Of a stretch of 64,000 nt of DNA, positions 10,906 to 52,768 are shown one piece after another. The stretch's first letter is position 1. Every line of letters begins with the position of its first letter. The notes under the pieces are model-generated. The model was given only the letters and a program-made list of their open reading frames with translations. It had not been told where the DNA came from and searched no databases. A program made the position numbers and the translations under genes. This DNA comes from Dictyostelium discoideum (taxonomy: Eukaryota), in NCBI GenBank assembly GCA_000004695.1, contig CM000152.2, positions 6,112,001 through 6,176,000 of the forward strand. The letters run 5' to 3'.

Positions 10906-11376
10906 AATAAAATAATAATAATATTTATTTATTTAAATGGTGTATAAAGAAAAAAAAAAAAATAAAAATAAAATTTTTAAAAAAAAAAAAAAAAAAATAA
11001 ACCCCTGTTTTTTTTTTCAAATAATTATATTGGTAGCTGTTTTATTACCACAAATTAATTTCCGATTTTTAGATCATATTACTAAATAATTATTTATAAT
11101 TATTTTAATTTTTAATTTTTTATTTTTTTATTTTTTTTAATTTTTTTTTTTAATTTTTTTCATTTTTTTTTTATAATTTTATTTTTTTTATTTTTTTTTC
11201 TTTTTTTCTTTTTTCTTTAATTGCCACCCCCTTTTTTAGAATTGGAATAAATAATAATAATAATAATAATAATAATAATTTATTCAATTTCATTTCAAAC
11301 AAATAAATATCATTTTTAAAAAAAGAAAAAAAAATAAAAATAAAAAATAAAAAAAAAAAAATATAATTATATAAAA

Positions 11377-11829
11377 ATGTTTGATTTTATTCCAGAAGAA
11401 GCAGTTTGGGCAATTTTAATTATTGTTATAATTTATCTTTTAAAAGTTATATTATCACCAGCAAAAGATTATGTTCCAACTAAAGTTGTACAAAAACCAG
11501 TTTACGAAAAAAGAGATTATTCATTAGAGGAAATTAAAGATTTTAAAGGAATTGATGAAACAAAACCAATTTTCATCGCAATTAAAGGTAAAATTTATGA
11601 TGTAACTGCAAAGAAATCAACTTATGGTCCAGGTGGCTCATATCATTTATTTGCAGGAAATGATGCTACAGTCTGTTTGGCCAAAAGTTCATTCGAAGAA
11701 TCTGACATTAATCAACCATGGACAAATCAATCATTAGATGATTTAACTGCAGATCAAAAAGATTCACTTAAAAATTGGATTGATTTCTTTAGTGAAAGAT
11801 ATACTTTAGTTGGAAATGTTAAAGAATAA
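11377..11829 (+). CDS. Membrane-associated progesterone receptor component / cytochrome b5-like heme-steroid binding protein (MAPR/PGRMC family), single exon
   Basis: N-terminal TM helix, then 'YSLEEIKDFKGIDETKPIFIAIKGKIYDVTAKKSTYGPGGSYHLFAGNDATVCLAK', which matches the MAPR cyt-b5 domain consensus. Confidence 0.7.
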   Translation: MFDFIPEEAVWAILIIVIIYLLKVILSPAKDYVPTKVVQKPVYEKRDYSLEEIKDFKGIDETKPIFIAIKGKIYDVTAKKSTYGPGGSYHLFAGNDATVCLAKSSFEESDINQPWTNQSLDDLTADQKDSLKNWIDFFSERYTLVGNVKE

Positions 11830-13277: not shown

Positions 13278-13802
13278 TTTTTTTTCTTTTTTTTTTTTAA
13301 TATATATACATAAAAATAGTTGTAACTAAAAAAAAAAAAAAAAAATCAAAAAAAAAAAAAAAAAAAAAAAAAAACGAGCGACAATTTTTTTTTTTTTAAA
13401 ATTTATTTTTTATTTATTTATTTATTTTTTTTTTTTACGAAAAAAAAACTATTTAAAGAAGGAAAATTGTGGAAAAGATTTTAAATAAAATTTAATAATA
13501 ATTAAAAATTTTAATATATTTAATATTTAATATATTTATTTATATTTTTTATTTTTTTTTTTCTTCTTTTAATCCCTAAAAATAAAGTGGCAAAAGATTT
13601 AAGAAATTTTTACTAATAATACACCAATTCTTTTTACCATTTTTTTTATTTATATATTTTTAATGTTTTTTTTTTTTTTTTTTTCTTTGTATACAATTAT
13701 AATTTCGCAAATCCTATTATAATATTTTTGTTTTTGTTTTTGTTTTTGTTTTTGTTTTTGTTTTTGTTTTTGTTTTTTTTTTTTTTTTTTTCAAAAAATC
13801 TT

Positions 13803-13851: not shown

Positions 13852-14597
13852 TTAACCATGAATATCGATAGTTACATCATCAGCACCAATCTTTTTCATT
13901 TCAATTGGATTATTATCAGTGGCACTACTATTTTTACTTGTACTTTCTTCAATACTACTTGCACCAAATGAACCAGAGTTATTTTCAGCAGATTTCATTG
14001 AAGAACCAGCATTTGAAGCACCTTGAGAACTTGCACCACCACTATTTGATTTTCTTCTCATTTGAGCAGCAACAGAAAGTGAAGATTTTTCATCAGTTGC
14101 CAATTCCAACATACGGAATTGGTAGAATGCTAAAATACCAGTTGCTAAAACGATTGGAATATGAACACCAAAATCAATGGCAACAGTATTATTCATTTTA
14201 AGTTCTGTATTTGTATGGAAAAATGGATGTGGATATTGAATAACGAATAGGAAAGTGATTGCAATTGATGAAAATATTGATACTTTTTTACCTGGACTTG
14301 GTGGTAAAAGTAAAATAGTTCTAAGTGCAATATAGGCAAATGTAAAACCCAATGCAAGAACTGCTGAATTTACAAGATGGAATGTAACAAAAAAGAATTT
14401 TTGATATGCAACATAAGTAGGTTCCAAAGGTTGATAATGGAATGCAACTGGTACTGCAATTGCAAAGAAAATAACACCAATCACTAATCCATGATAATTA
14501 AAGTTTTTATACCATTCTTGTTTTAATGGATCAACTTCTCTACCTTCTTTCATTTTTGATCTCATCATTGCAACTTCATACATTAATTTAATTAAAT
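13852..14597 (-). CDS. Multi-pass membrane protein, exon 4 (to stop)
   Basis: Acceptor ttttag. Several hydrophobic helices ('GLVIGVIFFAIAVPVAF', 'FVTFHLVNSAVLALGFTFAYIAL', 'SIFSSIAITFLFVIQYP', 'IPIVLATGILAFYQF'), then a Ser/Gly-rich acidic tail. The total is about 410 aa. Confidence 0.55.
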
Positions 14598-14681
14598 CTA
14601 AAAAATTATTAAAAAAAAAATTAAAAAAAAAATTAAAAATTAGTATATATATAATAATAATAATTAATTGATTAAAAAAGG

Positions 14682-14723
<42 letters not shown>

Positions 14724-14728
14724 TTTAC

Positions 14729-14903
14729 CATATTGGAAATAACCAAGTACTACAGAACAAAAAGTAATTGTCCAATGAAAAGTTGTCTCCATTGTAATAT
14801 AATCTCTAAGTGGATCATGACCAGTTGTTAAAATAAGGAAATGAGTTGTTGAATGTGGCCACCATTCCATACAAAAAAAACTAATTGTGCACCAGCACCA
14901 TAT
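14729..14903 (-). CDS. Multi-pass membrane protein, exon 3
   Basis: Acceptor aaattag. Encodes 'IWCWCTISFFCMEWWPHSTTHFLILTTGHDPLRDYITMETTFHWTITFCSVVLGYFQY'. Donor gtaaag, phase 1. Confidence 0.5.
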
Positions 14904-15001
14904 CTAATTTTTAATTATTATTATTATTGTCATAACAATTAATATCCAAAAATAAAAATAAAATAAAAATAAAAAAAAAAAAAATAAAAAAAAATACATA
15001 C

Positions 15002-15213
15002 CATTCTTTTTCTTAACATTGAATTTTTAATTTTAAATACACGGAATCCAACTGCAACAAAAAATGCTAAACCAACACCAAATAAACAAGTTTCAAAAAT
15101 ACTCAATATAATTAATGCTGCATTTTGACCTCTATTACGAACCATTTGCATCATACCTTGTTGTGTAAAAATTTGATCACTTTCATTTCTATAACTTTCT
15201 ACATATGTTCTAT
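15002..15213 (-). CDS. Multi-pass membrane protein, exon 2
   Basis: Acceptor ttaatag. Encodes '...RNRGQNAALIILSIFETCLFGVGLAFFVAVGFRVF...'. Donor gtatgt, phase 0. Confidence 0.5.
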
Positions 15214-15281
15214 CTATTAAATTTTTATTAATTTATTAATTTTTTATTTTTTTTTTATTTTTATTATTTTTATATTTTGAT

Positions 15282-15326
<45 letters not shown>

Positions 15327-15332
15327 ACTTAC

Positions 15333-15432
15333 CTACAGAGAGTGCGATTGCCCAACCCACAAGAGTTAACAGAGCAATTTGAACTCTTAAATTCTTTAAC
15401 CAATCAAATTTGGAATCAAATTGTAATCCCAT
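15333..15432 (-). CDS. Multi-pass membrane protein of unknown family, exon 1
   Basis: 'MGLQFDSKFDWLKNLRVQIALLTLVGWAIALSV'. Donor gtaagt, phase 1. Confidence 0.5.
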
Positions 15433-42040: not shown

Positions 42041-43211
42041 TTTCTTTTTTTTTTTTCTCTAAAAAACATAAAAAAAAAAAAAAATAGAAATTGTATAAAA
42101 AAAAAAGTTAAAAAAACAACATTGAAGATAAAAAAAAAAAATTACGAGTTTCCTTTTTGTTGATTTTTTTTTTTTTTTTTTTTCTTTTTTCTTTTTTACA
42201 GAAATTGCTTTTTTTTAAAAAAAGGATTTTTACTGAGATATTTTTTTTTTTTTTATCTTCATCAATGCTGGTTTTTAAAAAAAAAAAAAAATAAAAAAAA
42301 AAAATAAAAAAAAAAAAAAAAAAATTAAAAATCAATTAATAGAAATTTTAAATTTCATTAAAAAAAAACTTTTCAAATTTCAATTGATTTTTGATAATAT
42401 CCCCCTCCCAATCAAAGTTTAATTCAACTGTTGAAAAAAAAAAAAAACCCAGATTTTTTATTTTATGAGAATAAATATCTATAGGAGAAGCAACTAACAA
42501 TTTCATTTATTAAAATCAATAAAAAAAATAAAATATACAAAAACTAAAATTTATTTATTTATTCTCTTCATTATTTATTTATTTATTTTTTTTTTTTTTT
42601 ATTCAGAATTCTTTCTTGGTTCTTTTTTTCTTTAATCAACGAGGCTTGTTTGATTGTTTGAAGGTTTTATAAACAAAAATTCTTAGACCAATAGATTTTG
42701 TGAATAATTTTTCCAACAACTATAACCATAGTTATATTATTTTAATTTTATTCTAATTAATTATTATTTTCTTTTTAATTAAATTATTTTTAAATTTATA
42801 TTATTATTTTATATGGTGATTTTGTGTGTGTGACATTTTTAATATCTGGTATCTAATATCTATTGTGAAAACCTTGTGAAATTAAAATTAAAATATTTTT
42901 TTTTTTTTTTTTTTTTTAATTACAACGGGAGAAAACCCCTTTAAACAAAACAATAAAACAAATTATTATTATTTTCTGAATTATGTGTGTTATAATAAAA
43001 TGTTGAAACAAAACTATATTCTAAATTATTATTATTTATTTTTGAATTGTTATTATTTAGTTGTGTTTAGTGAGTTTATTATATAAAATGAAACAATTTA
43101 TTAAAATAAATTAAGTTAGTAATAATTAATATTGAATTATTAATTCAATATTAATAGTTATTTTTAAATGTTCTGTTTAGAGCATTTCATGAAATTAAAT
43201 AAATGTTAGTA

Positions 43212-43891
43212 TTAACAAGATATTTTTGAGATCTTGTTACAATCCCAAATTGCAAAGCTGAAAACTGAGTTTAAAATACTATCTTGATTAAATAGATTAT
43301 AAAAATCACTATCTTGAAATGTTTTTGGATCGATTAATGTAAAACCAATTGGTAAATTCAGGTATTTATCTATATTATTAAAATTAAAATATATTATATT
43401 ATCAACTATTAGATCTGTAATATCTACATCATTAAACATAAAAGAAATATCTTTTTAATCTTTTAAATTATCAACACCTATAGATTATTTAATTTTTTTT
43501 AATTATTTAATTAGTTGGTAAATTATATTAAAATTTTCAATTTTTTTGATTTAACTTACTTTTTAATTGTATTGATGATAAAATTACTTGAATATTATGT
43601 GAATAAATGGAGCCTTCTCGATTTGGACTATAAAGTGAAAATGCATCTAAATGATTAAAAAAACCATCTGGTTATTTGTTGAACCATATTTAACGGCATC
43701 GTATAATATTTCAAAAACACCATTTTTAATATTACCAGGAACCAATGACTCTACATGAAATTCCAAAACATTATTATCAATAATTTATACCATATGTATC
43801 TAATATTATAAATCTAATAAAATAATAGAAATTACTTAAATATATGGTTTCATATGATTTTAAGATTGGTATAGTAGCGTCATTGACTATA
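43212..43891 (-). pseudogene. Copy D fragment of the family (part of the penultimate exon plus the start of the large exon), truncated at both ends by insertions
   Basis: The ORF at 43212-43439 'MFNDVDITDLIVDNIIYFNFNNIDKYLNLPIGFTLIDPKTFQDSDF...' aligns to F 50900-51145. 43560-43890 aligns to F 51300-51620. Homology to F stops at 43246 on the downstream side and at the TIR element (43892) on the upstream side. Confidence 0.65.
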
Positions 43892-44095
43892 TGTCCCATG
43901 CCAAAATTACCATATTAATTTCAGCAGCCATATTAATTTTGGCATGGGACTTAGGTCTGCCAAAATTACCTTATTAATTTCAGCAGCCATATTAATTTCA
44001 GCATGTACATAGCTGCCAAAATTAATATGGTAATTTTGGCATAGAAAAAAAAAAAGTCAAAGTCATTTAATTAATAATCATCTCAAATATAAACA
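43892..44095. repeat. Left terminal inverted repeat of the element (hairpin-rich; about 2.5 copies of a ~45-bp 'ccaaaattacc(a/t)tattaatttcagcagccatattaatt' unit)
   Basis: Read directly from the sequence. It pairs with 45841-46080. Confidence 0.75.
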
Positions 44096-44397
44096 AAATT
44101 TTAGTACTAAAATTAATATTATTATTATTTTTATTTTAATAATTATAATAATAAAAAAAAAAAAAAAAAATTTTCATATTATTTTATTTATATCTTTTAT
44201 TTATTTTTATCTTTTTATTTTTATTATTAATTTTATAATTTATTTTCATTTCTTTTTTTTTTAGTTGAAAAAAATTTTTTTATTATTCATTTATTTCTAA
44301 GGCTAACAAAAAAAAAAAATTAAAAATAAAAAAAAAAAATAAAATAAAAAAAAAAAAAAAAAAATTAAAATAATTTTTTTTTTTTAATTTTTTTTTT

Positions 44398-44934
44398 TTA
44401 ATTATCTACTCTTCTACTTACTCTTTTGTTACTAACAGATGAAGTTTCGTTTGAAAATCTTTTGGTGAAAAAATCAGCATCAGATTGTAATTGATTAGCT
44501 CTTTTTTTACCCGTTTTGTTTTTGTTTGATTGAGTTGTGATTCCACCATTATTGGAAGTTGTTGCAGCTTCATGTGTTGATCTAACTTCGGTGGTAGAGT
44601 GCTCGATTGCTTTTCCAACTAGGTCATCTGTTGATTTTCTTTTGGTTATTTCGATATCCCTTTGCAATTTATTTTTACTTGAGAGTTTGGTGGCCTCTAT
44701 TCTAGAAGTAGGCTCAGTATTGTAATAAGCCTTTATAATAGCAGAATGACTATCTGCTTTATAATGATTACTGATGTGCTGTTGACACTGGTTTTGATTA
44801 ATCATATGAGAGACACCATCTTCATCTTTGTTAAGCCTAACCTTCTCTATAATCTTCACTAAGTCTTTTGGGTACCAATTTTTTCTTTTTATCTTTATCA
44901 ATATAAAACACTTCTTTAATAGTTGCCGTACCAT
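44398..44934 (-). CDS. Element-internal ORF (178 aa), function unknown. It overlaps out of frame an upstream 75-aa ORF (44837-45064) across an A-rich slippery tract
   Basis: 'MVRQLLKKCFILIKIKRKNWYPKDLVKIIEKVRLNKDEDGVSHMINQNQCQQHIS...KRVSRRVDN*'. The codons are noticeably GC-richer at third positions than surrounding genes (gcc acc ctc cag cac atc gag). No DDE or other transposase motif was recognised. Confidence 0.35.
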   Translation of the reverse strand: MVRQLLKKCFILIKIKRKNWYPKDLVKIIEKVRLNKDEDGVSHMINQNQCQQHISNHYKADSHSAIIKAYYNTEPTSRIEATKLSSKNKLQRDIEITKRKSTDDLVGKAIEHSTTEVRSTHEAATTSNNGGITTQSNKNKTGKKRANQLQSDADFFTKRFSNETSSVSNKRVSRRVDN

Positions 44935-45362
44935 ATTCTACATTCTCAACAACATACTGTTTATCCAAAATGTTTTTCCAATAGCTTGTATTTTGTCCAC
45001 TCAATTTGGTATTATGAAATTTATAATCTATTTTAAATTTTACATCTTCGTCATATTTTTCCAAGAGTTTTTTTAATTTATTTTTATTATTTTTTCAATT
45101 TCTGTTGCAGAAAGTTGATTATTTAATTTATTGTCTTTACTGAAGACCATTTTTTGGAACGAAAACTTTAAAAAAATAAAAAAATAAAAAAAAAAATACT
45201 TTTTTTTTTTAATTTTTTTTTTTATATTTTTTTTTTTATATTTTTTTTTTTTAAATTTTTTTTTTTAATTTTTTTTTTTTATTTTATTTTTTTAAAGTTT
45301 CGAACAATTATATATAAAAAAAAAGTAAAAGATATCCCTTCGGTTAATTAAATAATAGTAAT

Positions 45363-45406
<44 letters not shown>

Positions 45407-45408
45407 TA

Positions 45409-45505
<97 letters not shown>

Positions 45506-45840
45506 CTTAAATATACAAAAAAAAAATAAAAAAATAAAAAAATAAAAAAAATAAAAAAAAAAAAATAGAATGAAATGAAATAAAATAAAATAAAAAAAAG
45601 AAATACAGAATTTCTTTAAAGAAACTTATTTCGAAATTGTTTAAACAATCATACAGTTTAAAATTAAATAAATTGTTTTAAACCACCACTTTTTTTGAAC
45701 ACATGAAAATAAATAAGAAATAAAAATAAAAAGATAAAAAAAGATTTTTTTTTTTTTTTTTATTTTATAATTATTCTTGTCGTCAGTATTGTTACTATAA
45801 TTAATCCCATGAGTTTTTTTTTATTATTATTTTTAATTCT

Positions 45841-46080
45841 TTTATATTTGAGATGATTATTATTAATTAAATGACTTTGAGTTTTTTTTTTTATTTTTCT
45901 ATGCCCAAAATTACCATATTAATTTCAGCAGCCATATTAATTTCAGCCTAAAATAGTTGGTCTGTGCATGCCAAAATTAATATGGCTGCTGAAATTAATA
46001 TGGTAATTCTAGCAGACATAAGTCCCATGCCAAAATTACCATATTAATTTCAGCAGCCATATTAATTTTGGCATGGGACA
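45841..46080. repeat. Right terminal inverted repeat of the element
   Basis: Reverse complement of 43892-44095 with a few substitutions. Confidence 0.75.
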
Positions 46081-46339
46081 ACTATACTCGAAGGTGTCAC
46101 TTGTGACTTTAGATAGAAACATTTGAAAATATAGTAAAAATGGATAAAAAAAAAAGAAAATAAAATAATTAAAAAAAAACCAAATAATAAAAAGTTTCAT
46201 TCAATATATATATATTTTTTTAGTATTTATTTTATTTTAATAAAATATGTTAAAAATTATAATGTTTCAATTTTTAATATATTTATTATTTTTTTTTTAT
46301 TATTTTTTATTTTATTTTTTAATATATTTTGTTGTAGGG

Positions 46340-46935
46340 AATTTTTTTTGATATTTCGCTTTCTAAACGGCAGTGAATTTTTACACTAAAATACACTATT
46401 TATACATAGTGTAAAAATTCACTAAAAATTTTTTTTTTTTTTTATAAATTAAAAACAATTTATTTAATCAAAATAATAAAAAAACTAATTTTGAACAATT
46501 ATTTGTTGTTTAAGAATTAAATAACAATTTAAATTGTTAGATTTGAGCCAATTTTTTTTATTTTTTTTATTTTTTTATTTTTTTTTTAATAATTTATAAA
46601 ATGGCATTGCAAACTTTTATTAAAATTTAATTGTGAGAAATTTTACTATTGTAATTTCACGGGAAAAAAAAACCTAGTAAAATGTTAAAATATAATTAAT
46701 TAAATTAAATTTTAATAAAAGTTTGTAATGCTAAATTTGAGAGTCATCTTACTCTCAAATTATTTAAATAATTTAATTTGAGAGTCATCTTACTCTCAAA
46801 TTATTTAAATAAATTTTTTATTTTTTTATTTTTTTTTTAATAATTTTTAAATAAATTGTTATTTAATTTTTATTAATTTATTTAAATAATTTGAGAGTCA
46901 TCTTACTCTCAAATTATTTAAAATACATACTTGTA
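46340..46935. repeat. Cluster of palindromes and hairpin repeats next to the element and the 5' exons of family copy E
   Basis: A 17-bp-stem hairpin 'agtgaatttttacacta...tagtgtaaaaattcact' lies at 46370-46420. A 25-bp inverted repeat 'gcattgcaaacttttattaaaattt' / 'aaattttaataaaagtttgtaatgc' lies at 46604-46632 / 46707-46735. Three copies of a ~38-bp unit 'aatttgagagtcatcttactctcaaattatttaaataa' lie at 46733-46771, 46772-46813 and 46886-46925. Each unit holds an 8-bp-stem hairpin (tttgagag...ctctcaaa). Confidence 0.7.
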
Positions 46936-46939
46936 TAGT

Positions 46940-47686
46940 TTATAAAAATTGGAATACCTTGATAAGTTGTATCATTTATTTGTTCATAAAGAGAATAATT
47001 TTGTAAACCAGCGTTTAAAACCGAAAGGTAACTAATGTATGTCATATTACCCTATTGATCAAGATATAGGACTTGGTAAAGTTGAAATTATTTGGTCACT
47101 TAAAAAAATCAATGGATTAATTGGTCTTTGTAATGATGATATTGATTTAAGTTTTATAACACTTCCCAAAAATAAATTAGTTTCGCAATGGCCATCATTT
47201 GGGAATTGGATTAATTCTACAATTTCTCCATTCTTATTACTATTTTTATATTATTTTAAATTAATACAAACTATATTAATAAAATGAATTTTTTAAAAAA
47301 AAAAATAAAAAAAAGCTTTTTTTTTTCTGGAATTGTTTAAAAAATCAATTTTATAAAAAATTATAAAAGTAATAAAATCTTATTTGTTATATTATATGGT
47401 ACTGAAATATTGACCAGAATTATTAAAAGATATTTCCCAATTAGAGTTTGATAATCTTGGAATATAAAAATTTTCATAATATCGAATTCTATAATAATTT
47501 TTACCAAGTGATACTAAATCAAATGAATAATAACTATCAATAGTATTAATTCTAGTTGAATCTAAAAAACCATTTAGTTTAACAATTGATGAAAATTTAT
47601 TAACTATACTCCATGTTACTTGTATTATTTCAATATTAAAATAGTAATAATAATAATGGTAATAAACAATTGTATTAGTTGTTTTG

Positions 47687-47729
<43 letters not shown>

Positions 47730-48110
47730 AAGAGATTTATAATTACTTTTACATTCATAATTAAATAAAAATGAACCTTTTGAATATCATTGTTTACAAA
47801 AAAGGTTGTTGAATAGTTTGAAAAATTAAGAACATAAAAAAGTTGATGAAGTTATATTTACTTCTATAAAAAAACAAGACATATTGTCACCATCTAATGT
47901 TTGTATAGAATCTGTAGTTTCATTTATTTTTTGAACTAAAAATAAAAGATTGTATGCCGGACAATATGCATTTGGTGTTAATTCTGGATAAAATATATTT
48001 ATTCTATCTAAATAAGTTATTGAATAATTTAGTCCTTTTATTAATAAAATAAATGATTATATTAAAAGGTTGATAATTCCAAGTTTAACCATTTTAAAAG
48101 TAGAATTGTT
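46940..48110 (-). pseudogene. Copy E: 5' exons of a family member (signal exon with premature stop, exon 2, exon 3); probably the 5' part of the disrupted copy D gene
   Basis: The signal exon 'MVKLGIINLLI*SFILLIKGLNYSITYLDRINIFYPE...' ends near 48107. The exon-2 type lies at 47400-47650 and the exon-3 type at 46940-47290, homologous to F 52493-52768 and 52079-52396. The plus-strand ORF 47039-47287 is the antisense of exon 3. Confidence 0.5.
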
Positions 48111-48372
48111 TAATGTTTTTTTTGTTTTAAATTCGACCCGAGAGGAATTTTAAAATTTGTGAAAAAAATTTTTGGGGAAAAAAAAAAAAAAAATTTAATC
48201 GTAAATCCAAATGCTCAAATTTTTAAATTCCATCAAGCCAAACTTCGAACAAAAAAAAAATAGGATTTTTTTTTCTAAAAATAAAGATATTTTTTGGGCG
48301 TGAAATAGATAATTAAGTCTAATAGTCATTTTTTTTTTTTATTAATAATAAAAATTTTTTAATTGAATTTTT

Positions 48373-48419
<47 letters not shown>

Positions 48420-48619
48420 AGGAATATTCAATAAAACAATCAATTTAAAGAATAAAAAAAAAAAAATAAAAAAAAAAAAAAACAAAAAAAAGAGAATAAT
48501 TTTTGTCTGTTTGTAAAGGATTTATTTATTTATTTATTTTTTATCAATAAAATAAATAAAAAAAAAAAAAAAGAATAATTTTTGGTTTGCAAAGGATTTA
48601 TTCGTTTTTTTCTTTTTTA

Positions 48620-51183
48620 TCAATAAGTCTTCTTTGATTTTTTGAAGATTTTATAAATAATGATTCTAATATGAATTGATTTTGAGAAGAGAATTATTCC
48701 AACAATTATAACTAAAACTATGAAAAATACAATAGAACCAACAATAATACCAGCTAGTTGACTTTTGGTTAAAGATGATCCGGATGATGAGCAAATTGAA
48801 TTTGGGGAATTAGAATTTACAGCTTGATTATCTAATAAAAGTGAAAAATCAGGATCTATAATTACAGAGGTTTCATATTGACCAACCACAATACCAATAT
48901 ATGATTGTACATTATTTTCATTTGATATTGAATTTAATTTTGAATCTAATAATTCATTTGCGATTGTTACTGTTTCACCATCAACAATACCACGTTTTAA
49001 GAATCTACCATAAATACTATTACTTGAAACTTGAAGTTTAATATAATTTGAATTATCTAATGTTGTATCACCAAATTCTTTACCTGAACAAATATCTTTT
49101 TCATTTGATTGAATTTGAGCTTCAATTATAACTTGTAAATTATTTAATTTATTTGAGAATTTATATGATGATAATTCTACTGTATATTTAATTGTTGATG
49201 GATTCATTATTAATTCTTGATTTGCAAATGTAATATTACTTTTTTTTTCAAACCATTCTAATGTTACATTAATTGTTGTTGTTATGTTATTATTTATAAT
49301 TGTTGATTGATAATTTGATATTGTTGATGAAATACTATTATAATACCATTTATCAATATAATGAATTTTAACTTGTTCACCATTGATTGAGTTAACTTCT
49401 CTAATTGCTATAATTGATATGTTACTTGTAACTTGGTAATTATTATTAACATTACTAGAATTATTATTTTTATTATCAATAATTGTAGTTGGTTTATCTT
49501 CATTTGGTTTTGGTTGTGGTATAATTATAACTTTAGAGCTACAATCTAAGCCAACATAAGGAGAAAAACAAATACAACCAACATTTTCTTTACAATAACC
49601 TTTTTCTGAACCGCCACATACTGGATTACCTAAACAAATTTGAGGTTTATTAGTTGGTGTTGGTGTTGGAGAAATGGTACTTGTTGGTGTTGGAGTTGGT
49701 GCTGAATAATTGAAATAATAAACTTTTGGGAAAATAGTAAAAGTGTTTGATAGAATAGTTGGTTGCTGAATATTGGTTAAATGTACATTGATTGAATCGT
49801 TTGTTGGTTTAATATTTTTAATTAAAATTACAGAATCACTCGGTACTGTCATTGCTGAAGAATAAGATTCACCATTACTTGATAATATCACAACTTTATT
49901 GGTTGATTTAAAACCTCTACCATATAACCAAAGATCACCACCATCATTATCTATAGCAGATGAGTCAGTAATGATTGGTTGAGTTACTGAAAACTCTTTT
50001 GTTTCTACAAACCAAGTAAAACCTGAATCTTTTAAATCACTTGCGCTATAACCTCTATATGATCCACCTCTATTAATAAATCCATAAACTGAAATTAAAA
50101 ATCCATATGGATGTGAAAATCCAATTGGTACTTCCATTGTGCATGTGTATTCAATATCTGTTCTATTCTTTGTAACAATGGTTGAAATACATTCATGAAT
50201 TCTTGAATTCATATCTGTTATATATACTATTGGATATTGATCATCTTTTAAACCGTCTAAATCCTGTGCATCAAAATCAAATACTATTAATCTATCTAAT
50301 GACCCAACATCAATAGATGATCTTGATACCCAAAATCTTTTTAACTCTGGTAGTGGTGAATCAATTTGATTACACATATTTAATGTTGAAACTTGTAATA
50401 TTGACATATCATTAAGATAATTAATAAATGGATTCGCACTTGAGTCAAGGCTAATTTGCCCATCCAATTCAATATTTGTAAGACGTTTATAATATTTATT
50501 TACATTACCAAATGTATCAATGAAAACTGCATAATAAATTTCATAATTTTGAGGTACACAATCATTTAAAATATATGGTATACTTATTATATAATTTCCT
50601 TTCCATTTATCACCACTACCAACTACCATATCACTTAATTCCAATGTATAATTATATAATGAACTATCAATCGAACCTCTAATAGTAACATATCCATCTT
50701 TGAAACCATTAATTTCATCTTCAATTGTAAATAACCATCCTAATGTTGTGTCTGGATATTTAACTATACTTGTAACTATTGGACCATAACTATCGAATTT
50801 TGTATTATCAATTCTTAATTGGTATTCATCAGATAATTGAGTATTAAGTATATAATTCTCTTTATTAAATATTAACATCCAATCTAAAACACCTGGTGAT
50901 GTATTTGCTGGTATTTTAAATTTAATATAAAATCTTGAATTTATTTCATCCCAAATTGCAAAACTGTAAACTGAGTTTAAAATACTAACTTGATTATATT
51001 CATTAATAAAATCACTATCTTGTAGTGTTCTTGGGTCAGTTAATGTAAAACCAATTGGTAAATTCTTATAATTATCTATATTATTAAAACTAAAATATAT
51101 TATATTATCAACTATTTGATCTGTAATATCAACATCATTAAACATAAAAGAAATATCTTTTATATCTTTTAAATGGTCAACAC
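48620..51183 (-). CDS. Copy F (long, most intact family member): terminal large exon (EGF-like motif, domain, TM, stop)
   Basis: Acceptor ctatag at 51184-51189. An 841-aa ORF contains 'CLGNPVCGGSEKGYCKENVGCICFSPYVGLDC', a (TP)n linker and the 'IVGSIVFFIVLVIIVGIILFSKS' TM helix with a basic tail 'KIFKKSKKTY*'. Confidence 0.7.
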
Positions 51184-51265
51184 CTATAGATTATTTAATT
51201 TTTTTTAATTATTTAATTAGTTGGTAAATTATATTAAAATTTTCAATTTTTTCAATTTAACTTAC

Positions 51266-51940
51266 TTTTTAATTGTATTGAAGGGAAAATTACTTGAATA
51301 GTATGTGATAAAATGGAGTAGTCTCGATTTGGACTATAAACTGAAGATGAGTCTAAGTGATTATAAAAACTTATTGAATTTTTTGTTGAACCATATTTAA
51401 CGGCATCGTATAATATTTCAAAAACACCATTTTTAATATCACCAGAAATCAATGAGTCTACATGAAATTCCAAAACATTATTATCAATAATAGTTTGAAA
51501 ATAATTTAAACCATATGTATCTGATATCATAAATCTAATTAAATAATTAAAATTATTTAAATATATGGTTTCATATGATTTTAAGATTGGTTTAGTTGTG
51601 TCATTGACAAAACTTGAAGGTGTCACTCGCAACTCTGGGCCATTTCCAGAAAGAAAGGTCATATGCAAGTAAAAATAATTTTTATTTGAAAAACCACGAG
51701 TTGGTAAAGACATTTTTATTTTGTAGTTTAAATTGTTTCCACTTGAAAATCCAAATGGAAATACTTGATATTTATTATCACCAAATATACCATCCCCATA
51801 GGAATACTTTAAGTATTGAGAATCATACTTGAATCCAATGTCACTATAAGACAATTCAAATGAATATAATGACATTGAACTAGTACTATTATCAACAGTT
51901 GTATTTATTATTGAAGATATTAAACCTTGATCAATTTGGC
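51266..51940 (-). CDS. Copy F, penultimate exon
   Basis: Acceptor gaaaag|gc at 51941-51942. Encodes '...NSTSSMSLYSFELSYSDIGFKYDSQ...VIFPSIQLK'. Donor gtaagt at 51265, phase 1, joins in frame to 51183. Confidence 0.6.
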
Positions 51941-52078
51941 CTTTTCCAAAAAATTAAAAAAATTAAAAAAACAAGAAAATAAAAAAAAACATGAATTAGA
52001 ATTGTGTTTTAATTTTAATTAATAATAACAATAATAAAAATAATAATAATTTGCACTCTAATTATTTAAAATACATAC

Positions 52079-52396
52079 TTGTATAGTTTATAAAAATTGG
52101 AATACCTTGATAAGCTGTGTTATTTATTTGTTCATAAAGAGAATAATTTTGTAAACCATCGTTTACAACCGAAAGGTAACTAATGTATGTCATATTACCT
52201 ATTGATCCAGAAATAGGTCTTGGTAAAGTTGAATACACCGAGTTAATTAAAACCAATGGATTAATTGGTCTTTGTAATGATGATACTGAATTAAATTTTA
52301 TAACACTTCCAAACAATAACATAATTTCACAATTGCGGCCATTTGGAAATTGGATTAATTCTACAATTTCTTCATTCTTATTACTATTTTTATATT
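52079..52396 (-). CDS. Copy F, exon 3
   Basis: Acceptor ttaaaag. Encodes 'YKNSNKNEEIVELIQFPNGRNCEIMLLFGSVIKFNSVSSLQRPINPLVLINSVYSTLPRPISGSIGNMTYISYL...IFINYT'. Donor gtatgt, phase 1. Confidence 0.55.
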
Positions 52397-52492
52397 CTTT
52401 TAAATTAATACAAACTATATTAATAAAATGAATTTTTAAAAAAAAAAAAAAAAAAAAATTAATTTTAAAAAATAATAATAATAAAATCTTAC

Positions 52493-52768
52493 TTGTTATA
52501 TTATATGGTACTGAAATTGTTATTATTGTACCAGAATTACTAAAAGATATTTCCCAATTAGAGTTTGATAATCTTGGAATATAAAATTTTTCATAATATC
52601 GAATTCTATAATAATTTTTACCAAGTGATGTTAAATCAAATGAATAATAACTATCAATAGTAGTAATTATAGTTGAATCTAATAAACCATTTAGTTTAAC
52701 AATTGATGAAAATTTATTAACTATACTCCATGTTACTTCTTGTATTATTTCAATATTAATTTCATATC
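52493..52768 (-). CDS. Copy F, exon 2
   Basis: Acceptor aataag|ga. Encodes 'YEINIEIIQEVTWSIVNKFSSIVKLNGLLDSTIITTIDSYYSFDLTSLGKNYYRIRYYEKFYIPRLSNSNWEISFSNSGTIITISVPYNIT'. Donor gtaaga, phase 1. The frame was checked codon by codon. Confidence 0.55.

Follow-up and report, generated by a model that had tools for sequence, protein, structure and literature searches.

The 64,000-nt window of Dictyostelium discoideum DNA that was analyzed here (all coordinates refer to it unless another locus is named) contains, at positions 46340 to 46935, a dense cluster of hairpins and palindromic repeats that lies close to a TIR transposon. The question raised by this locus is whether the cluster is a mobile element or the remnant of one, a structured element with a function, or a scar left by mutation in a decaying gene.

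The cluster lies in a dead ComC-like gene

The window belongs to chromosome 3 of D. discoideum AX4, and the 841–amino acid ORF beside the cluster is 100% identical to DDB_G0282707. The genes of this tandem, minus-strand array code for ComC-like surface proteins with DUF7743, DUF7035, DUF7034, DUF7949, and ComC_SSD. The cluster occupies intron 1 and exon 2 of a dead ComC-like paralogue adjoining DDB_G0282707. When the window was compared with itself, two blocks of the dead gene matched paralogue 2: positions 46854 to 47600 (85% identity to 52000–52717) and positions 43242 to 43887 (88% identity to the region 50948–51608). The 2.19-kb TIR element sits between the two blocks. The host gene is dead, since it carries the transposon inside exon 2 and has lost ~186 bp of this exon. 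An assembly artifact is ruled out for the cluster because its sequence is the same over 854 nt in the independent assembly GCA_054883475.1.

The features of the locus are listed in Table 1. Homology to exon 2 is missing between 46141 and 46595, where ~186 bp of the exon has been replaced by ~453 bp (46142–46594). No homologue of the AT-rich filler could be detected; all its matches were low-complexity ones, with alignment scores within the range of shuffled sequences. Attempts to show that the filler and the 70-nt spacer are decayed native sequence gave alignment scores no better than those of shuffles. At the far side of the replaced region, the 15-mer CAATGCCATTTTATA matches the start of exon 2 in paralogue 3 at every position, and none of 1000 Markov nulls reached its information score. 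In a relaxed-score BLAST against the orthologues, in which the other matches were mostly low-complexity noise, this exon-2-start relic aligned with 84% identity over 37 nt.

Table 1. Features of the hairpin cluster and its surroundings, in window coordinates.
Feature	Position	Strand	Remarks
TIR DNA transposon, multicopy	43892–46080	−	Inserted in exon 2 of the dead gene; 2.19 kb
Exon-2 relic	46081–46141	−	Directly after the transposon; homologous to paralogue 2 at ~51608–51676; …AGTGACACCTTC.AGT… in common
AT-rich filler	46142–46330		Together with the next segment replaces ~186 bp of exon 2
Dispersed repeat copy, ~265 bp	46331–46597		Sharp edge at 46331 (TGTTGTAGGGAATTTTTTTTGA… / TGTTGTAGGG…); other end fades into a T-run; holds hairpin 1
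Hairpin 1	46372–46423		Arms 46372–46388 and 46407–46423; perfect 17-bp stem, 18-nt loop
Exon-2-start relic	46595–46632	−	15-mer CAATGCCATTTTATA on the gene strand, from 46609 down to 46595
70-nt spacer	46633–46702		Smaller nested inverted repeats in predicted folds
Inverted copy	46703–46731		28/29 to the native arm 46604–46632
Two tandem palindromic units	46734–46815	−	Period 41 bp, 100% identical
33-nt exact direct duplicate	46814–46846		Of 46563–46595, the T-rich tail beside the dispersed repeat
Native intron 1, 5′ end	46854–46930	−	Donor GTATGT at 46930–46925; paralogue-2 homology resumes at 46854
Palindrome copy 3	46881–46922	−	Arms 46881–46898 and 46905–46922; 18-bp stem, 6-nt loop; begins 8 nt into intron 1

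Strong inverted repeats are concentrated in the cluster and in the transposon termini

An earlier note on this DNA, made from the sequence alone, had described three types of hairpins in the cluster. All three are present where it placed them, far above chance, although some coordinates and stem lengths had to be corrected. The hairpin with a 17-bp stem was found with perfect arms; when folded as DNA, it reaches −15.7 kcal/mol (z = −8.8). The inverted repeat reported as 25 bp with a 75-bp spacer exists, but its arms (46604–46632 and 46703–46731) are in fact 29 nt long, match at 28 of 29 positions, and enclose a spacer of 70 nt. No such repeat is expected by chance, and the z score of its fold is −7.6. 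The three copies of a 38-bp unit are also real (38/38 at both 46734 and 46775, and 36/38 at 46888), but their stems are longer than the 8 bp given for them, with 11 to 12 bp in the first two copies and 18 bp in the third. The arrangement had been called a threefold tandem; this holds for copies 1 and 2, which follow each other with a period of 41 bp and a 3-nt gap, but not for copy 3, which is 113 bp off. Three exact copies of the 28-nt palindrome core AATTTGAGAGTCATCTTACTCTCAAATT are present (at 46734, 46775, and 46888); the 64 kb contain no other, and the number expected by chance is zero.

Fold prediction, proposed in the earlier note as a check, showed that the region 46340–46935 is far more stable as single-stranded DNA than shuffled sequences (−108 kcal/mol versus −55 ± 4; z = −12.6). 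The z scores of the single hairpins of the cluster ranged from −7.6 to −9.0. The window was also scanned for perfect inverted repeats with stems of at least 12 bp, loops of no more than 100 nt, and at least 3 G/C. Fourteen were found, with eight in the termini of the TIR element, five in the cluster, and one elsewhere. The last one (40501–40515/40600–40614; 15-bp stem, 84-nt loop) lies upstream of a short ComC-like ORF.

We agree with the earlier view that the cluster is noncoding and does not resemble a CRISPR array. The latter was rejected because the host, D. discoideum, is a eukaryote and the copies are irregularly spaced (41 and 113 bp).

Folds as stable as those predicted here might belong to a functional structured RNA or regulatory element, such as a young intronic miRNA-like precursor or a regulatory structure of the family gene. 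D. discoideum has both intronic and transposon-borne miRNAs (PMC6161686, PMC4894637), and new miRNA hairpins are documented to have arisen by template switching (PMC10710096). However, a search of Rfam with 46340–46935 gave no match at E ≤ 1 and one chance-level match at E ≤ 10, 10- to 12-mers of the palindrome and the hairpin are absent from the D. discoideum miRNA supplement of PMC6161686, and two of the stems are only 17 to 18 bp long. The structures occur in no other family member or strain examined, and the host gene is dead. A functional RNA or regulatory element is therefore highly improbable. The same two observations, the former amounting to 0 of 9 other family members, leave unsupported the suggestion in the earlier note that the cluster is a structured regulatory region of the family gene.

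The palindromic unit and the 29-nt repeat each contain host sequence in one arm

The start of intron 1 of the dead gene was compared with nine other intron-1 starts, those of two AX4 paralogues and of seven genes of ACTFIR, ACTFIY, ACTFIZ, and ACTFIW (loci L005 to L008). Most of the nine read GTATGTATTTTAAATAATTAGAG…CAAATTATTATT or GTATGTATTTTAAATAATTAGAG(T/A)G…CAAATTATTATTATT, or a variant of these; paralogue 3 and gene 1 of L007 diverge. The dead AX4 copy reads TTTAAATAATTTGAGAGT-AAGATG-ACTCTCAAATTATTTAAA, which is unique to it among the sequences compared. The perfect palindrome is present in none of the nine other starts, most of which have a short quasi-palindrome at this site. In the seven paralogues and orthologues that were aligned, the left (intron-proximal) arm is identical at 15 to 16 of 18 positions, and the right arm, whose common part is CAAATTATT, at 10 to 15 of 18. 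By these alignments, the intron-proximal arm of the 38-bp unit is native intron sequence. The family ancestor had only a short quasi-palindrome (AATAATT…AATTATT), and it is in AX4 alone that this is found expanded to a perfect 18-bp stem. Copies 1 and 2 have the same orientation as copy 3, as can be seen from their loop, which is asymmetric and reads AAGATG on the gene strand. Neither the loop nor the 70-nt spacer can be traced more than loosely to native sequence, and alignments there are not significant in such AT-rich DNA. The palindrome site in intron 1 seems to be a recurrent instability spot.

In the arm of the 29-nt repeat at 46604–46632, the downstream one on the gene strand, 6 nt fall within the significant exon-2-start relic, and the remainder of the arm weakly resembles paralogue 3. 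Part of this arm is thus native, and the upstream arm at 46703–46731 is its inverted copy. Together with the direct duplicate listed in Table 1, these arms make the region a patchwork of locally copied sequence in both direct and inverted orientation.

The origin of the arms bears on a further possibility, namely, that the 38- to 41-bp unit, the 128-bp inverted-repeat unit, or both were inserted as MITE-like or foldback elements. The palindromic copies are identical, and the inverted-repeat unit is of MITE-like size. MITEs and foldback elements are likewise short, noncoding, and AT-rich, with terminal inverted repeats that fold back. The arms of the cluster, in contrast, are host gene sequence, from the intron in one case and the exon in the other. 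Since an arm of host sequence is unlike what an inserted element would bring, the 38-bp unit would not be a mobile element. By inspection, no direct repeat that could represent a target-site duplication (TSD) flanks any palindrome or 29-nt unit, and two of the three palindromic copies, copies 1 and 2, abut head-to-tail. Neither the rest of the 64-kb window nor the related Dictyostelium loci L002 to L010 (~190 kb) contained a further copy of the 38-bp unit or of the 29-nt repeat. Metagenome and viral collections, which probably hold little or no Dictyostelium DNA, gave no exact matches to the palindrome core or to the core of the hairpin segment. These results largely refute insertion of a miniature element, to which we attach hardly any credence, and with it the designation of the 38-bp unit and the 29-nt repeat as a MITE-like remnant. 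In the loci searched, the two motifs were found at this site only and not beside other copies of the TIR element; by the refuting condition set in the earlier note, this argues against a mobile origin of both.

Hairpin 1 lies in a dispersed 265-bp segment

The suggestion that the cluster contains the terminus of another element can be retained for 46331–46597 only, a segment that has a sharp end at 46331, includes hairpin 1, and exists in a second copy. The latter is located at positions 13549 to 13292 of L003, an unrelated locus of GCA_054883475.1 (85% identity over 263 nt, E = 2e-76, aligned to window positions 46330 to 46587), and the flanks of the two copies are unrelated. As read by eye from the alignment, the segment is apparently best conserved beside the sharp end. 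The stem of hairpin 1 has one C·A mismatch in the L003 copy, with no compensatory change. The L003 segment lies 1.7 kb from a copy of the TIR element but on its opposite side and in the opposite relative orientation; the segment is therefore not part of the TIR element. Both known copies are less than 2 kb from a TIR-element copy, and this proximity may be more than coincidence. The six other family loci and the two further TIR-element loci that were searched yielded no third copy.

In L003, the segment overlaps the gene ACTFIT_008971 (13483–13887, 204 amino acids), whose ORF starts inside it; the AX4 copy would encode the same 22 residues. A search for further segment copies by way of this gene returned only the gene itself, and its product had no homologue other than itself among 5.8 billion proteins. 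The neighboring ORFs of L003 (13991–15351) matched nothing in Pfam, PHROGs, or PDB, and the idea of a virus-like context was dropped for this reason. A weak DUF5906 protein is encoded at L003 7720–9762, and the TIR-element copy lies between it and the ORFs at 13991–15351.

The 265-bp segment is either a fragment of a repeat or a one-off capture. If the former, then 46142–46597, or at least 46331–46597, could be the terminal fragment of a transposon or other repeat in exon 2, with hairpin 1 as a subterminal structure and the palindromes as secondary events. In favor of this, the second copy has unrelated flanks and the same sharp boundary, and the apparent peak of conservation beside that boundary, although judged by eye, is reminiscent of transposon termini. 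In addition, one extra copy was found in only ~62 kb sampled, which suggests that the segment is fairly high in copy number or else associated with the neighborhoods of the TIR element. Nevertheless, there are only two copies; when their ends were compared, no TIR, LTR, TSD, or poly(A) 3′ tail could be recognized; and the segment is absent from the eight loci mentioned above. A terminal fragment would also leave the 38-bp units and the 29-nt repeat, with their native arms, unexplained. We therefore consider that a transposon terminus is an unlikely explanation for the cluster, though one to be taken seriously.

The neighboring TIR transposon ends before the cluster

The transposon in exon 2 has the termini TGTCCC...GGGACA and is flanked by the 6-bp TSD ACTATA (43886–43891 and 46081–46086). 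Copies at two other loci have 6-bp TSDs of their own (ATTAAC in L002 and CATATT in L003), so that a TSD was present in all three copies checked. In intact family members, the empty site reads GACTATAC or GACAAAAC. The transposon ORF is 99% identical to DDB_G0271172. No Pfam or PHROGs match was found for the 178–amino acid ORF of the transposon, and the element thus looks nonautonomous. At its right end (45977–46065), Rfam mir-7131 matched on both strands with 98.9 and 95.8 bits, the gathering score being 74. Multicopy miRNA loci of D. discoideum are located in the thug-S transposon (PMC6161686, PMC4894637). Because of these published loci and the mir-7131 match, the element is probably thug-S, an identification taken from the literature and not from sequence comparison; no direct statement linking mir-7131 to thug-S was found in the literature text searched. 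Between AX4 and GCA_054883475.1, the AT-rich interior of the transposon differs by 62-bp and 124-bp indels (45351–45412 and 45500–45623); outside of these, there are few homopolymer-length and single-nucleotide differences across 10.7 kb.

The transposon is the direct neighbor of the cluster and is itself rich in palindromic hairpins, with the mir-7131 hairpin in its end. The cluster nevertheless lies outside its TIR and TSD limits, has no sequence in common with it, and is not found beside other copies. That the cluster is part of the TIR element was rejected, since the element ends at 46080 and is followed by the TSD and then by native exon sequence. A constant companion of the element was rejected as well, given that the palindrome and the 29-nt repeat are absent at the L002, L003, and L004 copies. 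The same motifs, which the earlier note had proposed to look for beside other copies of the element, were thus not seen at any of these three loci, save for the one 265-bp segment 1.7 kb away in L003.

The cluster might still be a consequence of transposition. The TIR element could have left a double-strand break, on excision or in an abortive insertion, before it hopped locally to 46081, and the break could have been repaired by fold-back synthesis and filler. The scar begins 55 bp from the TSD, and only one strong perfect inverted repeat of the 64 kb lies outside both the element and the scar. Hairpin-forming cut-and-paste transposons leave inverted duplications of flanking host DNA as their footprint, and the duplications observed here would fit such a mechanism. 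Yet the scar contains no element-derived sequence, its matches to the element being of low complexity only, and two other insertions of the element have clean flanks. Opened hairpin-capped ends should moreover give inverted repeats without a spacer, whereas the spacers here are 6 and 70 nt. A transposon footprint is accordingly improbable. Slimmer still is the chance of a combined scenario, in which the scar is the excision or abortive-transposition footprint of a transposase-less TIR element of the thug-S family and an undescribed partner element has left its terminus as the 265-bp segment. Should this scenario be true, the inverted duplications of host DNA would be a first clue to the transposition chemistry of an orphan Dictyostelium transposon family, one with hairpin-forming ends. 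The perfect hairpins that arose next to a miRNA-bearing transposon might then also supply raw material for new small-RNA loci.

The cluster is restricted to AX4 and a near-identical assembly

The three motifs were absent from the orthologous loci of four other strains, from the D. dimigraforme and D. citrinum loci, and from the flanks of the three other TIR-element copies, with the single exception of the L003 copy of the 265-bp segment. Among the sequences compared, only AX4 and the near-identical assembly carry the cluster, and no intermediate state was seen. The strain comparison covered window positions ~42245 to 48574, L005 16355–17777, L006 14829–19262, L007 15385–20300, and L008 14768–15147. 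The orthologue of the dead gene is intact in ACTFIZ (1399 amino acids), has a deletion of the 5′ part of exon 2 in ACTFIY, and is truncated just past the exon-2 start in ACTFIR. In ACTFIW, the gene is absent, and the orthologue of paralogue 2 passes straight to window position ~42245. The ComC-like array is clearly prone to rearrangement, and its turnover appears to be quick.

Two further observations were made in these strains. In ACTFIR, ~22-bp tandem repeats (TTAATAATTACTTTTTAATTTC-like) follow the truncated orthologue at L005 17760–18000 and are in turn followed by DNA unrelated to the AX4 window, an arrangement that resembles a structural breakpoint. At the intron-1 position that holds the palindrome in AX4, two other family genes (L007 ~11190–11320 and L005 ~11225–11400) have long (AAT)n or (ATT)n expansions.

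The changes in AX4 seem recent compared to the age of the pseudogene: Identity is 100% between the unit copies and 28 of 29 positions between the repeat arms, whereas it is 85 to 88% between the pseudogene and its paralogue.

DISCUSSION

Our comparisons suggest that the cluster is probably a nonfunctional scar of template switching, slippage, and the capture of one repeat in a dead ComC-like paralogue. The palindromes would have been formed by short-range template switching, that is, by fold-back copying of the nascent or the complementary strand during replication or break repair. Such switching homogenizes and extends imperfect inverted repeats, and the intron quasi-palindrome could in this way have become a perfect 18-bp stem. 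Copies 1 and 2 may be later direct duplications of the unit, produced by slippage. When exon 2 broke, the 265-bp segment would have been taken up, either as captured filler or by insertion of a repeat fragment. Since the gene is a pseudogene under no selection, the scar would be tolerated and persist, and the hairpins would be by-products without function.

Template switching between imperfect inverted repeats is known to homogenize and expand their arms and to create perfect hairpins (PMC8794818, PMC8604942, PMC13100816, PMC7954356). The locus shares with such mutations an imperfect repeat in the relatives that corresponds to a longer perfect one in a single lineage, reverse-complement copying, and the change of several nucleotides at once. 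In both copy 3 and the 29-nt repeat, one arm is ancestral, and the newly formed arm is the reverse complement of the DNA next to it; the derived state is limited to one lineage, and most relatives have an imperfect precursor. The locus differs in that at least two inverted duplications, tandem duplications, and a captured repeat are found within 600 bp of a pseudogene and in that one of its repeats has a 70-nt spacer.

The locus also resembles the filler DNA and templated insertions seen at repaired breaks (MMBIR/FoSTeS-type; PMC9199198), where direct and inverted copies of nearby DNA together with an ectopic segment replace deleted sequence, although the junction microhomologies are ambiguous in such AT-rich DNA. 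In our judgment, which is not a computed estimate, the several hairpin-forming and duplication changes within ~600 bp look like more than independent rare events would produce, and this suggests one complex repair event or local fragility.

The cluster is an ordinary further instance of a known mutational pattern, and its biological weight is low. It offers a natural example, in an extremely AT-rich genome, of an intron quasi-palindrome that became a long perfect hairpin and was then duplicated. Such scars can mimic MITEs or structured RNAs. For annotation, the AX4 locus is best described as a decaying, strain-variable member of a tandem ComC-like array, and neither as a regulatory module nor as a new repeat family.
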